Source: a virus. From it: a stretch of 19,376 nt of DNA. The position numbers and the translations under genes are program-made. The notes below the pieces were generated by a model. It saw only the letters and a list, made by a program, of their open reading frames with translations, made no database searches and had not been told where the DNA came from. Below, in pieces: positions 1-4,892 of the stretch. Where the stretch lies: UHGV virus genome UHGV-1605165; one strand, written 5' to 3'. How positions within the stretch are numbered: the first letter of the stretch is position 1; each line of letters begins with the position of its first letter.

Positions 1-395
1 ATCACCTCCTGCTCCGGATCGGCGTCACTGTTTCCGTTGACGAAGTTCACCGCATCCAGAAAACGGGCGTAAACCTTACGCCGGACCACCGTTCCGCCGA
101 CCAGACTCTGCAGATCTTCCGCCATCCCGGTGACCATGCCGTGCAGGTTAGAGACCGTCAGTGTCGGACGGGCAGCACTGCCCTTGCCGTTCATCTCAAA
201 TCCACTCCCCTGAATGGGATAGGCCTGATACTGCCGACTCTGCCAGGTGACAGACTCACCTTTTTCATTCTGCTCATTGCAGAAAAAGTAGCGATCCCCG
301 CCTACCTCGGTCAGGTCGATTTCCCAGAGCACCACGCTGGCCGACTGCTCCGCACGAATGCATTCATTCAGCGTTTCCTGTTGTATGTCCTGCAT
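1..395 (-). CDS. L: minor tail protein L (lambda gpL-like), 5' part only; gene runs off the window edge
   Basis: Minus-strand translation from ATG 395..393 reads [47 protein letters not shown]..., which I recognise as near-identical to the lambda gpL N-terminus. Start overlaps the stop of M (TGATG). Absent from ORF track because no stop lies inside the window. Confidence 0.85.
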   Translation of the reverse strand, partial: MQDIQQETLNECIRAEQSASVVLWEIDLTEVGGDRYFFCNEQNEKGESVTWQSRQYQAYPIQGSGFEMNGKGSAARPTLTVSNLHGMVTGMAEDLQSLVGGTVVRRKVYARFLDAVNFVNGNSDADPEQEV

Positions 396-733
396 CAGAT
401 CACCACTTCGTCAAACTGACACGAAAAATCGGTATAGGTGATATGTTCTGTCGCTGACCACGTTCGACACACCACTCTGATTTTTCTGTTAATACCCGGC
501 GGGCGCCAAAAAAAAGATTTATAGCCTTCATGCCGGGCTAAAAATTTTTCAAATGAATCACGTTCATTCGCCTCAACTTTGAAATCACAGGTGAAAACGC
601 GCAGAGAATGATTAAGTCCATTTGGACTTCGTTGCTCATAACCATCGCCAAATCTTACAGTTTTTATCGATGGTTTATTTTCTGTTTTCATTCCATCCTC
701 TGGTAACCAGTGAAATTCTTCCGTATTAGCCAC
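395..733 (-). CDS. M: minor tail protein M (lambda gpM-like)
   Basis: 112 aa; [16 protein letters not shown]...FDEVVI matches the lambda gpM pattern (VRFGDGYSQRAPAGLN...FEQVVN) as I recall it. GTG start at 733 overlaps the tape-measure stop by 8 nt; canonical position between H and L. Confidence 0.85.
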
Positions 734-3700
734 TTAACATTCCCCCATCACGTCGCATATTTAACAGATTGCCCTGCACCCGCTGATCAACCATCCCCAT
801 AAGTGCTTTTATTGCCTGAGGGCCAATCTCTCCATTCTGGCCGTCATTTTGAATAGTGATTTGGTATACAGGGGCATAGGTAATATCTCCGCCTCCATTA
901 CCACTTTTACTATTAATAGCTCTGACACCAAGAGAACCATCGGAAGTTCGTGTTAATGGCATAATGGCTTCCGGACCAGCCTCACCAAAAACACCAGCCC
1001 CTTTTGCAAAAGCAAAAAATTGCGGGGAATCATAAATACCGTTCGAATACATGTTCAATGACGGAGACTCATAAACACCGCCCTTTGCATTCGGAATAAA
1101 TTTACTAATAGCACTCCCGATAGTTCCTAAAATCCCCCCAGAAGAACTGTTACTAATGCTGTCGAAAATCCCAGTAATTGAAGCCTTTAATGCTATTCGA
1201 CTAAGATCCGAAATCACGGAAGTAGCGAAAGAACGAAAATTTGCCTTGCCTGTCGTGACAAAATCACCCAGCGCATCGGTCATTCCATCAAACATCTGAG
1301 TCGTGGTTGATTTTATCTGCTCACTGATATCCTTAGTGTCATCCAGCCAGTTATTGAATCCCTGGGAGGCACCACTAACCCAGTCTCCTGCCTGAATATC
1401 GAGCTGCTCGTTTTTCTGTCTGACAATGTCTTTTTCTCGTTCCAGAGCATCATTCAGAGCCTGCATTTTCTCCTGAAAAACATGATTTGACATCCCACGG
1501 GATTTATCTGCATAGTCACGTTCAAGTTGCAGACGCTGATTGTTATATTCACGTTCAATCCGCAGTAATTCCTGCTGGCGTTGCTGATTTTTATCGCCAA
1601 CCCCATAACCAGCAATCTGAATATCATACCCCTGTTGACGATTATCAATCGAAGCCTGCAATGAATCACGCCATGCAGCTATTTCGGCGGATTCCTTGAT
1701 TAGCCTGTTATTTTTTTCAATCGCAACATTTTTCTCCATCAACGCGGTTATTTCTTCCCGGTGTAAGAGAAGCGATTTCTGATCCTGGGTTAATTTCGAT
1801 GACGGTCGTGACTCCAGGTTGGCAATCTGCTGACGCCACTTAACCAGTTCCTGTTCAGTGGAACTTAATTTAACGGTTAATTCAGTTTGTGAACTTAGTA
1901 ACGCATTCTGTTGATTCAGATGATCAATCATTCGTTGGGCAGCATCATCCGAATAACCTTTCGCCTTTGGTTGCTTTGGATCTTTATAACGCTCATTTAT
2001 TTGAGCGATAAGATTATTATATTCTTCCTTTGAATACTGACTCTTTAGCTTTTCCAGTTTTGCAAGTTCACTAGCTCTCTGCTGCTCCCGGGTCTGATAT
2101 TGTTTTGAAAAGGCATCTGCTCTCTGTCTGAGTTCAATTCCTTCCTGTTGTCGCTTGTTGTAATCGTTTATTGATGAATTTAGTACGTCCTGAGCAATTT
2201 TTTCTGCTTGAAGTGCGCCCAATTGCTGCTTTAATCGTGCCAGCCTTTTATTTTGAGCTCCGCCATCTCCAATGCCACCTAACCCGAAAACTCCGGGTCG
2301 GGTATTTTTTTCTATTTCATCAATTTGACGGAGAACATCTGAGATTTTTTGATCAAGGGAGGCCTCACGGCCAATATCCAGCATGGAATCCCATGCCCAT
2401 TTTGCGGAGTCTGCGACAGCTTTCCATGCAGTCTCAAGATAACCAAGATTTTCTTTAATCTGGTTGGTGCGCTGGATCATTGAGGATGAGTATGCTTCTG
2501 TCGCAATGCGGGCGGCCTCCTGCTGGTTCCCTTCATCCTGTAGCGCCTTAATCTGGTTATAAGTCGCAATTGTCAGAAAATGGTACTGATCATTAAGTTT
2601 TGATATGGCACTGACAGGATCCTTTGCAATTTCATTGAAGTCATTAACCAGTTGTTCGGTTGATATTCCTGTTACTTCGCTCGTTTTTACTATCGCTGTC
2701 GTCACTTGCTCCAGCGAACTGCTCGCTACCTTTCCCGAACGCACAAGCTGGTTTAATACTGCCGCCGCAGCGCCAGTTGTCGAATCAGCCGCATTCCCGG
2801 CACGTTGAGCTATATCGGCCAATTGCCCGCTGGTTGTCCCCAACTGATTTCCGGTAAGAATAAGAGATTTATTAAATTCGTCCTGCTCCTGAGAGCCTTT
2901 ATAGTAAGCCAGCCCTAAGACGCCAACGGCTGCTGCGGCCAGGGTAAAAGGATTAATTAATCCCAGCACATAAGAACCAACACCTTTGATCGCCGGGCCA
3001 ATCCCACCGAACATATCTTTTAGCTGGCCGCCCTGCTGCATTAACACCATAAAAGGCGACTGACCAGTGGACAACCCAACAACAATATCCGTCATTTGTG
3101 CAGGCAACATGCGCATAGCAAAAGCCGTTTGTTTTGCCGACATTCCGGTTTTGCTTAATTGAGATTGAGTAACCTCAAGCTCACTCCGCATAGCACGAAG
3201 TTTTCCAGAAAGTTCCTCATACATTTCAGGAGAGAGCATCCCCTTAGCTTTTGCTTCATTGAGCTGTTTCTGTTGTTCTACCAGACGATTAAAAGCAGTT
3301 CCGACAGGGTCAAGTTGAGCAATCAGACGTTGCAAAGCAGCAACCTGTTCATCATGCGCTTTTGCTGCTTCTCGCTCTGCCTGAGCCTCTCCGGTAAGCT
3401 CTCGCCGTGTTTCCTGTATTTTTCGGCTATAATTCTCAAACTGAGAACCATTTATTTTCCCGGATGCAAACGCAGCATTAAGTTCATCCTGCTGTTGTTC
3501 AAGATTTCTTAGCGCCGCAGCCAGAGGGTCGATCTTGTCCAGCATTCTTTGAAAGGCCTGAGCCTGCGCTTCCTGCTGGGCGGCAGCAAGTTTTCCGGCC
3601 TTCTCGGCTTCTCTCTGCGCTTGCGCAACCCCGCTCAATTCCTCTGTGGTTTCATTAAGTTTACGGACAAGAAATTCATATTCTTCTTTATCAATAAGCC

Positions 3701-3959
3701 CTTTATCGAAAAATTTCTTTAATTCAGAATAGCGTCGACCGACAGTATCAATTGCGGCACCAACTGGATCAATAGCTGCTTTTAATTTTGCGAGCGCGTT
3801 CTTCTCATCTTCTGTTGCCTTAGTCACTTTCCCTGCGCTATTTGCAGCAGTTTCCCCGGCCTGCGTCATTTTGACTAATGAGGAGGTCAGATTGTCAGCA
3901 TTATTTTTTGCTCCAGTGCTATCAATAATTATTGCGAGACGCGAGGTTTGCTCTGCCAT
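726..3959 (-). CDS. H: tail tape measure protein (lambda gpH-like)
   Basis: 1077 aa, coiled-coil rich. [39 protein letters not shown] and C-terminal [16 protein letters not shown]...[10 protein letters not shown] resemble lambda gpH. ATG 3959 with GGAG 8-9 nt upstream. Sits downstream of G/G-T and upstream of M and L. Confidence 0.9.
3210..3812 (-). repeat. three tandem, diverged ~60-70-codon coiled-coil repeats inside the tape measure gene
   Basis: Protein-level repeats share the pattern (I/L)DP(V/L)xxAxxx(L/V)...G(L/K/M)(I/L)...(Y/F)E...(K/R)(L/I)...EL(S/T/E)(G/V): [20 protein letters not shown]... / [20 protein letters not shown]... / [20 protein letters not shown].... Coordinates approximate, mapped from residues ~50-250. 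Confidence 0.5.
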
Positions 3960-3975
3960 TTATTAAAACTCCAGA

Positions 3976-4000
3976 CAACAAAAAGCCCACCGAAGTGGGT
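3976..4000 (-). terminator. putative weak intrinsic terminator or attenuator just upstream of the tape measure gene
   Basis: Minus-strand RNA: ACCCAC-UUCG-GUGGGC followed by UUUUUGUUG (5-bp GC-rich stem, UUCG tetraloop, U-run). Lies in the 163-bp gap between the G-T stop and the tape measure start. Confidence 0.35.
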
Positions 4001-4122
4001 TTCAGGCGACATAATAGTAGATATAGCGATTACGAGGCCACGCAATGCTTTTCTCCAGGAGCATCATCGATTTAATTAAAGACACCATCACATCTCTGTA
4101 ACAGAGTGTACGTAATTAACAA

Positions 4123-4443
4123 CTACACACACTGATCCTGAAAATACTGGTCATCCAGTGCAAAGATCACTGCTTCAAACTCATCGCGCTCAATCAATAC
4201 CGGATGAGTGGCTAAATATTCATTTATCTCTGTCAGAGATAAAGGCAAAGGCACCCCGGTCATTCCAGCATAACGTCGGGCACGGGATATTACCGAATAG
4301 GCGTACAACAATTCCTTAAGCACCGGGTCTATTTCTGGTTCCGGTATCGGTGGCAACCTGAGTTTTTCTCGCTTCCATCTTGCCTTTTCCCCCCTTTCTC
4401 CCCCGAACTCCGATAACCACCGCTGGGCGGCTATGGCTTTTTT
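4123..4443 (-). CDS. T-like extension of the tail assembly chaperone, expressed only as a G-T fusion by -1 programmed frameshift
   Basis: The -1 frame relative to G is open from 4467 to the TAG at 4125..4123 and overlaps the G 3' end. The ORF-track entry 4123..4356 starts at a TTG with no independent start signal. Canonical position between G and the tape measure. Confidence 0.6.
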   Translation of the reverse strand, partial: KKAIAAQRWLSEFGGERGEKARWKREKLRLPPIPEPEIDPVLKELLYAYSVISRARRYAGMTGVPLPLSLTEINEYLATHPVLIERDEFEAVIFALDDQYFQDQCV

Positions 4444-4892
4444 ATCGTATCCTGCTTCTGCTGCTCTTTACCCTGGGCGATGCTGGCTGCTTCTGCAAGG
4501 ATCTGCCAGTACAACTCTGGATTCTGCTTAAGCAGCGCGATCCCTCGTTCTGGCGTATATTCCAGTGCAACCTCAGCACCATTAACCAGTTCACCAACCC
4601 CTTTCCAGTCTTTCAGCAGATAACGAGCAGCATTATCAATGAGTAAATCATCAACAGAATCTACCTCGGAAACCTTTGAAATATCAAACTCCTTCGTTCC
4701 GACGTGCAAACTGGCATCCATTTTCTCAATGTGACGACGGATTAATGCATTACGGGAGCGATACTGATCGTTATCGCTGCTTGCCACCAACAGTTTTAAC
4801 CCGTCTACAGGTTTTAAGTCCTTCATTGGCGTAAACCAGCGTTCTCCACCGATGATAATTTTCTGATTAAGAATAAACATCCATAACCTCAT
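4431..4892 (-). CDS. tail assembly chaperone (gpG-like)
   Basis: 153-aa ORF between tail tube and tape measure, carrying the frameshift site at its 3' end. Start is ATG 4892 or more likely ATG 4880 (GAGG 6 nt upstream). No similarity to lambda G that I recognise; call is by position and recoding signal. Confidence 0.7.
   Translation of the reverse strand: MRLWMFILNQKIIIGGERWFTPMKDLKPVDGLKLLVASSDNDQYRSRNALIRRHIEKMDASLHVGTKEFDISKVSEVDSVDDLLIDNAARYLLKDWKGVGELVNGAEVALEYTPERGIALLKQNPELYWQILAEAASIAQGKEQQKQDTIKKP
4437..4443 (-). other. -1 programmed ribosomal frameshift slippery heptamer A_AAA_AAG
   Basis: In the G frame the last codons are AUA AAA AAG CCA UAG (..I K K P stop). Heptamer A AAA AAG at 4443..4437 fits X_XXY_YYZ and is a known bacterial/phage slippery site. 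Shifting -1 enters the open T frame. Confidence 0.6.

Follow-up and report, generated by a model that had tools for sequence, protein, structure and literature searches.

The tail tape measure gene in the window, a 19,376-nucleotide stretch of UHGV virus genome UHGV-1605165, encodes a protein substantially longer than its counterpart in phage lambda. The original prediction attributed the excess to three tandem repeats in the N-terminal third of the protein, which raises the questions of whether these repeats are genuine, how they vary among relatives and what they might do to the tail. The textbook protein ruler is the tape measure, which sets the length of the tail by its own length, and internal repeats are a known route by which such proteins become longer or shorter.

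Assignment of the 1077-residue open reading frame to the lambda family of tape measure proteins is supported by profile cut-offs and by alignment with lambda H, as had been proposed. It scores above the Pfam gathering scores for TMP_2 (274 bits, cut-off 30.2; E = 1e-81), TMP_4 (81.2 bits, cut-off 27) and Tape_meas_lam_C (91.4 bits, cut-off 23), and reaches 217 bits against a cut-off of 104.75 for the NCBIfam model TIGR01541. The gene has ~99.6% identity to E. coli prophage genes that bear a tape measure annotation, and the element that carries it is a Rac-like E. coli prophage. Gene position also fits the lambda family (Table 1): a -1 frameshift chaperone pair precedes the tape measure gene, and gpM and gpL homologues follow it. 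The chaperone pair contains a slippery heptamer, A AAA AAG, at 4437-4443, and the -1 frame is open until a stop at 4123. Orthologues of the gpM-like protein are annotated "tail tip assembly protein M" and carry the Pfam domain Phage_min_tail. Rfam, promoter and terminator scans of the region returned nothing above chance.

Table 1. Features of the tape measure gene and its neighborhood, in window coordinates
Feature	Position	Strand	Basis and remarks
gpM-like minor tail protein gene, directly downstream of the tape measure gene	395..733	minus	ORF and orthologues
Tail tape measure protein gene, lambda H family, 1077 aa	726..3959	minus	Pfam, TIGR01541, lambda H colinearity
Tape_meas_lam_C domain, aa 858-932	1164..1388	minus	Pfam, TIGR01541 search
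TMP_4 domain, aa 671-748	1716..1949	minus	Pfam
Possible degenerate half-unit, SHOCT-like core, aa 627-657, central region	1989..2081	minus	Weak unit-HMM match
TMP_2 domain, aa 267-471, first region common to lambda H	2547..3161	minus	Pfam and lambda H alignment
Repeat unit 3, aa 205-273	3141..3347	minus	Smith-Waterman, unit HMM; last residues overlap start of TMP_2 match
Exchangeable block, 640 nt, three units	3162..3801	minus	blastn against Citrobacter prophage L004; protein alignment
Repeat unit 2, aa 132-200	3360..3566	minus	Smith-Waterman, unit HMM
Linker after unit 1, aa 121-131	3567-3599	minus	Unit boundaries
Repeat unit 1, aa 52-120	3600..3806	minus	Smith-Waterman, unit HMM; sub-threshold SHOCT-like core at aa 79-101
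N-terminal cap, aa 1-51, precedes the repeat array	3807..3959	minus	78% identical to Citrobacter one-unit relative
Tail assembly chaperone pair, G/GT type	4123..4892	minus	ORFs and slippery site; supports tape measure assignment
G-like ORF, YdaY family	4431-4892	minus	Pfam Phage_YdaY on orthologue

The tape measure gene lies on the minus strand, and the range in which the repeats were predicted, 3210-3812, therefore corresponds to residues 50-250. The array is found there, and we confirmed that it consists of three tandem internal duplicates. The in-register units are anchored at [IL]DP motifs at residues 63, 143 and 216, giving periods of 80 and 73 residues rather than the ~60-70 first proposed, and unit 3 continues 69 nt below the predicted lower boundary, to 3141. 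The proposed consensus holds, in the form (I/L)DP(V/L)...G.(I/L)...(Y/F)...K(L/I)...EL(S/T)G, except that unit 3 ends in ELE instead of EL(S/T)G. Self-BLASTP of the 1077-residue protein produced no off-diagonal alignments, and we used Smith-Waterman alignment with residue shuffles in its place for comparing units. Unit pairs score 85-121, versus ~26 ± 5 in shuffles (z = 12-18), and none of 2000 shuffles reached the observed score. In alignment, the units share 31-36% protein identity with no gap or with just one gap of a single residue, and the Asp-Pro, Gly and aromatic landmarks keep a fixed spacing.

Similarity of this kind could in principle be compositional, reflecting an Ala/Gln/Glu/Lys-rich heptad coiled coil and not common descent; the region is indeed helical with a heptad pattern, and SMC and other coiled-coil families match it weakly. 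However, against a stricter null in which coiled-coil character is retained, unit pairs score 85-118, whereas the other helical 69-residue windows of the same protein reach 47 at best. The Asp-Pro, Gly and aromatic landmarks are not heptad features, yet their spacing is fixed and the alignments are near-gapless. Moreover, a unit profile is specific in retrieving tape measure proteins, among them those of T1 and HK639. A compositional origin is effectively refuted, and we assign it a negligible probability. As the units are only 31-36% identical to each other and are orthologous by position across genera, they are old, diverged duplications in this lineage.

The alignment with lambda H was the comparison on which the claim that internal duplication lengthened the protein had been staked, and it places the extra length at the units. 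Residues 270-1077 align with lambda residues 57-850 (BLASTP E = 4e-79, 28% identity; phmmer against PDB chain 8iyk_H, E = 1.7e-70). Residue 270 thus corresponds to lambda residue 57, and colinearity extends from there to both C termini, so that 213 of the 224 residues by which lambda gpH is shorter fall N-terminal of TMP_2, where the units sit. Lambda gpH (PDB 8iyk and 8k35 chains) carries TMP_2, TMP_4 and Tape_meas_lam_C in the same order, with a G/GT chaperone upstream and M and L downstream, but between TMP_2 and the ~53 residues at its N terminus it lacks any unit. By this alignment, the three units account for nearly all of the extra length.

At the DNA level, the repeat has almost vanished. 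The earlier remark that the repetition can be seen in the DNA as well is true only weakly: in-register nucleotide identity between units is 42-52%, third codon positions are 29-40% identical, near the 28% in-frame background, and no exact in-register run exceeds 5-6 nt. Tandem Repeats Finder detected no repeat in the DNA at a score of at least 30, and no short-period array, and a seed-based search found no in-register family. Because so little DNA repeat is left, the units are not a present-day recombination substrate, contrary to what was originally suggested. A live role in unequal homologous recombination, making tail-length variants within populations, would fit the observation that relatives vary in unit number and that in-frame deletion variants occur, if rarely, in E. 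coli. However, exact runs of 6 nt or less offer little to recombine, and both repeat finders missed the array. Of the 1071 complete E. coli genomes carrying the region, 1063 match it over at least 80% of its length. The two in-frame E. coli deletions seen (25 and 37 residues) are out of unit register and flanked by TGCTATGCG and GCAAAAGC, microhomologies of 8-9 nt unrelated to that register. A one-unit Citrobacter relative likewise carries a separate, diverged unit and not a hybrid of units 1 and 3, with no blastn similarity in the array and conserved flanks. For the present sequence this proposal is already contradicted, and we consider it very improbable.

Length variation among relatives arises instead by whole-block exchange together with rare microhomology deletions. 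In a Citrobacter prophage (L004) with the same gene order and otherwise ~86% identical, the 640-nt block of three units is replaced by 181 nt encoding one diverged unit. With blastn, this prophage matches window positions 3-3161 at 85.7% and positions 3802-3988 at 78.2%; the stretch between them is unmatched, and the boundaries of the exchange are clean and fall at the array edges. In a tree of units, grouping follows position and not protein. We propose that copy number changes among relatives by block swaps through recombination in conserved flanks, and not by crossing-over between units. Among relatives, the unit region is more conserved than the C-terminal half of the protein, a difference that is unreadable as selection because these tape measure proteins are mosaics.

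A profile of the unit revealed a natural series of copy numbers. Lambda has no units, T1 gp38 (957 residues) has one (residues 61-140, E = 3.8e-8), as do Citrobacter prophage tape measures of 924-967 residues, and HK639 gp15 (1024 residues) has two (E = 4e-18 and 1.5e-17, with a model built without HK639). Three units occur in the 1077-residue protein and in relatives of 1069-1166 residues, four in relatives of 1192-1240 residues, and five in P0126. The T1 and HK639 proteins are lambda-family members that, like the one described here, carry the unit N-terminal of TMP_2. The start of TMP_2 moves with unit number, with medians of 25, 127, 242, 267, 340 and 379 for zero to five units (r = 0.80; 54 in lambda H itself), and median full length climbs from 832 to 1279 residues. 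Only the medians and the TMP_2 start track unit number; total length shows no correlation with it across all 171 full-length relatives (r = 0.06), since some proteins of 1700-2000 residues have a single unit. The Rac prophage of E. coli K-12 is 99.1% identical in DNA over the repeat region, and a 751-nt query spanning all three units matches it in full. K-12 Rac, in contrast to the window with its intact gene and complete structural module, is a defective remnant that has neither the rest of the protein nor the head genes; its ynaA is a truncated tape measure pseudogene, annotated as an N-terminal fragment missing the C terminus, with the chaperone gene ydaY next to it.

The module occurs widely among tape measure proteins, with a variable copy number. 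Searching 1.84 billion representative proteins with the unit profile yielded 611 protein clusters at E ≤ 1e-3, and among the best 149 of these 611 matches the number of copies ranges from 1 to 10. Comparison of seven matches with Pfam identified two TMP_2-family and three PhageMin_Tail-family tape measures, and in the latter family the units lie mid-protein or C-terminally in up to 10 copies. In the limited literature covered, where absence is not proof, we found no description of a ~75-residue tape measure unit. A different type of array is described in a report on tape measure proteins in which a variable number of 11-residue tandem repeats changes protein length and tail length (Belcaid, Bergeron and Poisson 2011, PMC3271669). 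The repeats described there are numerous and still similar in DNA, whereas here three copies with a period of 73-80 residues, well outside the 11-residue class, retain no usable DNA identity.

To place the unit structurally, we modeled it with AlphaFold2. Residues 130-211 (unit 2), with an alignment of 72 sequences, gave a helix-loop-helix (pLDDT 89, pTM 0.63) with helices at 16-36 and 42-81 and a loop at 37-41, predicted to form an antiparallel hairpin as a monomer. The model for residues 1-300, from 11 close homologues, is all-helical, with confidence dipping at Asp-Pro and breaking at the Gly loop; at pLDDT 60 and pTM 0.27 it is too uncertain for tertiary structure and was used for helix boundaries only. 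Across 72 distant units, Pro is present in 100%, Asp and Gly each in 96% and Leu in 94%, and 93-96% have a hydrophobic residue at the aromatic positions. A 3-4-3-4 spacing of hydrophobic residues extends across the whole unit, interrupted only at the Gly loop. The unit may thus be described in four parts: a short helix ending at the invariant Asp-Pro; a 21-residue helix; a loop of five residues at the invariant Gly, after which come a hydrophobic residue and an aromatic (the SHOCT-like core); and a ~40-residue helix that would continue into the next unit.

No Pfam family covers the ~75-residue unit. Its central L..L...G.I...(Y/F)...K..L resembles the SHOCT domain (PF09851; unit 1, E = 2e-4), but the best single unit reaches 21.4 bits against a gathering score of 27, and any match at E ≤ 1 is confined to 3 of 13 units. 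Two tape measures, with five and three clear units, pass the whole-protein score only by summing sub-threshold stretches. SHOCT is also a short C-terminal domain, whereas the motifs here are internal and repeated (residues 79-101 and the equivalents in units 2 and 3) within a unit ~3 times longer. A link between SHOCT and tape measures was not found beyond one incidental mention in the limited literature covered. Searching the PDB with the unit model in Foldseek turned up nothing significant (best E = 0.5), and the matches of low rmsd were generic helical hairpins. The long helix of influenza HA2 recurred among sub-threshold PDB sequence-profile matches (E = 0.02-0.08), which we treated as coiled-coil noise. 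Outside the array, residues 627-657 form a possible degenerate half-unit with independent E values of 0.02-0.19 in the unit HMM. For units 1 and 3, this half-unit outscores every other window outside the array, and it aligns with lambda H residues 401-445, which contain lambda's sole match, a partial SHOCT-like core at residues 412-440.

What might such units do to the tail? The ruler principle is said to originate with Katsura and Hendrix in 1984 and Katsura in 1987, and Pedersen et al. reportedly engineered duplications and deletions in the TP901-1 tape measure in 2000. Lambda, with a tape measure of 853 residues, builds 32 rings. For T1, with 957 residues, the count is approximately 34 rings of 42 Å, and the N-terminal part of the tape measure is not visible in the density (T1 cryo-EM paper). 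The two phages together give a calibration of 27-28 residues per ring. A trimeric tape measure would fill the tail tube's lumen and stop tube growth at its N-terminal end, and the 213-224 extra residues should therefore add rings; the predicted tube would have ~38-40 rings (~160-170 nm), compared with 32 in lambda. Given the established ruler role, we infer that a tail longer than lambda's is plausible. Electron microscopy of Rac-type particles was not found in the limited literature covered.

How much length the units add turns on whether they lie inside the tube as extended helices or as folded hairpins. If the hairpin persists there, each unit would contribute only ~30 residues' worth of length (~5 nm) and not the ~11 nm of full extension. 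T1 has 104 more residues than lambda and only ~2 more rings, where a fully extended helix expects 3.7, although the rings are counted only approximately and there are other differences between the two proteins. We speculate, as a long shot, that the unit is a metastable fold-back, a hairpin when free or chaperone-bound and an extended trimeric coiled coil in the tube, or the reverse; arrays would then step ruler length and might store energy for ejection. The hairpin model, the near-unbroken heptads through the loop and T1's few extra rings are compatible with this idea and are not proof of it.

Strong conservation of the Asp-Pro, Gly and aromatic positions across very distant tape measures suggests that the unit may be more than a passive spacer. 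The units could be mainly interaction modules, docking a G/GT (YdaY-type) chaperone, the terminator or tube, or a host or periplasmic factor after ejection, with added length as a by-product. Near-invariant residues over 72 distant units, the confident and defined helix-loop-helix model, position-specific unit identities kept across genera, and a core resembling SHOCT, thought to be an oligomerization motif, all speak for such a role. However, lambda H, which likewise works alongside a G/GT chaperone, lacks the unit, and the Citrobacter relative combines the same chaperone gene (~86% DNA identity) with one unit rather than three. The mid-protein or C-terminal placement and the 10-copy arrays of the PhageMin_Tail family indicate that the units are not restricted to a single end or partner. 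We regard a primarily interactive role as unlikely. The account that we favor, and hold to be probable, is that three ancient ~75-residue helical duplicates between the cap and TMP_2, exchanged as a block, most likely serve as length-adding segments of the ruler.

The unit array is an ordinary, previously unnamed example of phage ruler-length variation. Finding three units leaves the understanding of tail length control unchanged, and its significance is modest. The module is now defined by its length of ~75 residues, by its SHOCT-like core and by landmarks at Asp-Pro, Gly and the aromatic, and it includes the units of T1, HK639 and the K-12 Rac remnant. It comes with a natural series of zero to five copies at one fixed position of lambda-family proteins, and with one prophage pair, ~86% identical in DNA, that differs by a clean block of three units versus one. 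This series is suited to asking what length of tail, in ångströms, a folded-looking module provides per residue, and how strictly tail length follows sequence length.

The tape measure protein of the window carries three tandem, diverged units, as the original prediction held, and the motif proposed for them was correct. Pairwise local alignments between units run in register, with a single one-residue gap (unit 1 versus unit 3), and score 85–121 versus ~26 ± 5 for shuffled sequences (z = 12–18). Under a stricter null that retains the helical, Gln/Glu/Lys-rich character of the protein, the best other 69-aa window scores at most 47 against any unit. Inter-unit protein identity is 31–36%. The [IL]DP anchor motifs at aa 63, 143, and 216 give periods of 80 and 73 aa, longer than the 60–70 residues first proposed, and unit 3 continues 69 nt past the lower end of the range originally assigned (3210–3812, aa 50–250). 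Visibility of the repeat in the DNA, also claimed at first, is weak: in-register DNA identity is 42–52%, third codon positions are near background, exact in-register runs reach at most 6 nt, and neither repeat finder reported an array at the DNA level.

Features of the tape measure gene and its upstream neighbors (residues refer to the 1,077-aa protein)
Feature	Residues	Position	Strand	Remark
Tape measure ORF	1–1077	726..3959	minus	1,077 aa, long
Unit 1 conserved core	52–120	3600–3806	minus	
Unit 2 conserved core	132–200	3360–3566	minus	
Unit 3 conserved core	205–273	3141–3347	minus	
Deletion variant site	253–286	3120–3200	minus	
Deletion variant site	195–241	3255–3375	minus	
TMP_2	267–471			Pfam match far above cut-off
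TMP_4	671–748			Pfam match far above cut-off
Tape_meas_lam_C	858–932			Pfam match far above cut-off
G/GT-type chaperone region, whole		4123–4892	minus	
G-like ORF (YdaY family) of G/GT-type tail assembly chaperone pair		4431–4892	minus	upstream of tape measure
Slippery heptamer A AAA AAG		4437–4443	minus	just ahead of G stop

The 1,077-aa protein also matches NCBIfam TIGR01541 far above cut-off. The -1 frame past the slippery site of the chaperone pair is open to 4123 (~105 further codons), and homologs of gpM and gpL lie downstream of the tape measure gene. The DNA shares ~99.6% identity with E. coli prophage records, and over the repeat region its identity to K-12 Rac prophage ynaA (neighbors ydaY, trkG, and stfR) is 99.1%; the window is therefore an intact head and tail structural module of a Rac-like prophage. 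A 751-nt query covering the three units aligns to K-12 over its full length; ynaA is annotated there as an N-terminal fragment with its C terminus missing. The repeat region occurs in 1,071 of 5,426 complete E. coli genomes (~20%), and the gene itself is common and has been annotated before.

Several features of this neighborhood were noted in passing. Public prophage records annotate the G and GT parts as separate genes. K-12 Rac (NZ_CP064678.1 1415820–1426570) keeps only ydaY and, of this tape measure, the N-terminal fragment ynaA, adjoining trkG, an IS5-disrupted lom, and stfR. The 163-nt spacer between chaperone and tape measure (3960–4122) has a terminator-like hairpin (3986–3999, minus strand), such sites being present regionally at chance number; it looks like a moron insertion site because an inserted Ail/Lom outer-membrane protein gene sits there in a Citrobacter relative (L004 7365–7931). 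A 117-codon, TTG-start ORF on the plus strand (3159–3512), antisense inside units 2 and 3, is without support and most likely spurious.

The extra length relative to the tape measure protein of phage lambda, H (853 aa), coincides with the array. By BLASTP, aa 270 of the window protein aligns with aa 57 of lambda H and the two are colinear onward to both ends, which places 213 of the 224 extra residues after an ~50-residue N-terminal cap and before TMP_2, where the units sit. This is the placement originally proposed, and an origin of the units by internal duplication is likewise supported. Unlike the window protein, lambda H has no unit N-terminal of TMP_2; it matches the central motif only partially, at aa 412–440. 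A weak partial motif (L..L...G.I...Y) at aa 627–657 of the window protein (1989–2081, minus strand) aligns with that match, and the two may be a degenerate relic unit.

Among full-length proteins within the 120 best homologs, one unit accompanies lengths of 924–967 aa (Citrobacter), three units 1,069–1,166 aa, and four units 1,192–1,240 aa. HK639 (1,024 aa) has two units (E 4e-18 and 1.5e-17 with a model built without HK639), T1 gp38 (957 aa, PDB 9l9p_B) has one (E 3.8e-8), and one representative protein has five. The TMP_2 start tracks unit number (r = 0.80), with medians of 25, 127, 242, 267, 340, and 379 for 0–5 units (54 in lambda H itself), and the median full length increases from 832 aa (0 units) to 1,279 aa (5 units); across the whole, very diverse set of relatives, total length and unit number show no correlation.

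In a neighbor-joining tree, the units cluster by position and not by protein; the duplications are therefore old, preceding the split between the versions found in Escherichia, Citrobacter, and Salmonella. The extra unit of four-unit proteins is the sister of unit 2, and single units form a separate group of their own.

How length variants arise is illustrated by a 924-aa Citrobacter braakii prophage protein, whose identity to the window protein is 78% over aa 1–51 and 85%–94% from TMP_2 onward. A single unit replaces the three and has ~34% of residues in common with the aligned unit 2 segment. At the DNA level, 3–3161 (85.7%) and 3802–3988 (78.2%) align, while the intervening 640 nt correspond to 181 nt in Citrobacter with undetectable similarity. 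The two versions differ in length by exactly 153 codons, with one breakpoint at the first residue of unit 1 and the other where TMP_2 starts, and the remaining structural module is equivalent gene for gene. The whole block has been swapped between conserved flanks rather than altered by unit-unit crossing-over. Of the 1,071 E. coli genomes carrying the repeat region, 1,063 match over at least 80% of it. Two rare in-frame deletions in E. coli, of 25 aa (P0002 and P0040) and 37 aa (P0066 and P0067), are flanked by direct-repeat microhomologies (TGCTATGCG and GCAAAAGC), the pattern that slippage would be expected to leave, and lie out of unit register. Given the block exchange, this coverage, and the out-of-register deletions, the suggestion that the repeats serve as a recombination substrate is therefore unsupported for the present sequence.

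The window protein is also mosaic in aa 472–1077 (726–2543, minus strand). Relatives 71%–86% identical through the units and TMP_2 fall to 17%–40% in the C-terminal ~220 residues, and an E. albertii homolog at least 91% identical elsewhere drops to 41% at aa 472–670. One E. coli homolog (P0034, 1,152 aa) has three units, TMP_2, and TMP_4, then a phage tail collar domain (PF07484) replacing the usual C terminus; it could be a tape measure/fiber gene deletion fusion or an assembly artifact.

An AlphaFold2 model of the unit, built from an alignment of 72 diverse units (pLDDT 89, pTM 0.63), forms an antiparallel hairpin: a short helix to Asp-Pro, a helix (16–36), a loop (37–41) at the invariant Gly, and a final helix (42–81). 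Against the PDB it gave no significant match, the low-rmsd ones being generic hairpins only. A model of aa 1–300, of low overall confidence, is all-helical with the same breaks. Conserved hydrophobics keep a 3-4-3-4 spacing along the whole unit, through Asp-Pro, with a break only at the Gly loop. Two states therefore fit the sequence: a folded hairpin and, inside the tube lumen, a trimeric coiled coil that is nearly continuous. Separately, the unit profile gave dozens of sub-threshold PDB matches (E 0.02–0.08) to influenza hemagglutinin HA2 residues 56–109, where a similar L..L...DDGF(I/L)D..TY motif lies inside a long trimeric coiled-coil helix. The likeness is probably coiled-coil chance, and HA2 illustrates that a Gly-containing motif of this type can be helical within a trimer.

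The tape measure occupies the tube lumen and its length sets that of the tail, a relation that Katsura and Hendrix in 1984 and Katsura in 1987 reportedly established. The lambda tail has 32 rings for 853 aa, and T1 has ~34 rings of 42 Å for 957 aa, the N-terminal part of its tape measure lacking resolved density in the map. Because these calibrations give 27–28 residues per ring, the 1,077-aa protein is predicted to specify 38–40 rings, about 160–170 nm. An extended array would account for ~34 nm, one with persisting hairpins for ~14 nm. Added units would likely affect the tail, and we consider it probable that they extend the ruler. That they are primarily interaction modules seems unlikely: their landmarks are invariant, as such a role would have it, but lambda lacks units, the Citrobacter phage has the same chaperone yet one unit, and unit position varies in other tape measure families.

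A profile built from 13 units matched 611 of 1.84 billion representative proteins at E ≤ 1e-3, of which 110 reached E ≤ 1e-10. The best 149 of the 611 carry one (76), two (37), three (22), four (10), five (3), or ten (1) copies. Pfam checks of seven proteins placed two in the TMP_2 family, with N-terminal units, and three among PhageMin_Tail-family tape measures, with units in the middle or at the C terminus. The unit is not covered by any Pfam or NCBIfam model, SHOCT coming nearest but staying sub-threshold (21.4 bits versus 27), and no description of it was found in the searchable literature. Tape measure repeats described before are 11-aa units (PMC3271669). The unit is a new, unnamed case of a known class, repeat modules in tape measure proteins, and its chief value lies in offering a defined module with a natural copy-number series fit for direct test.
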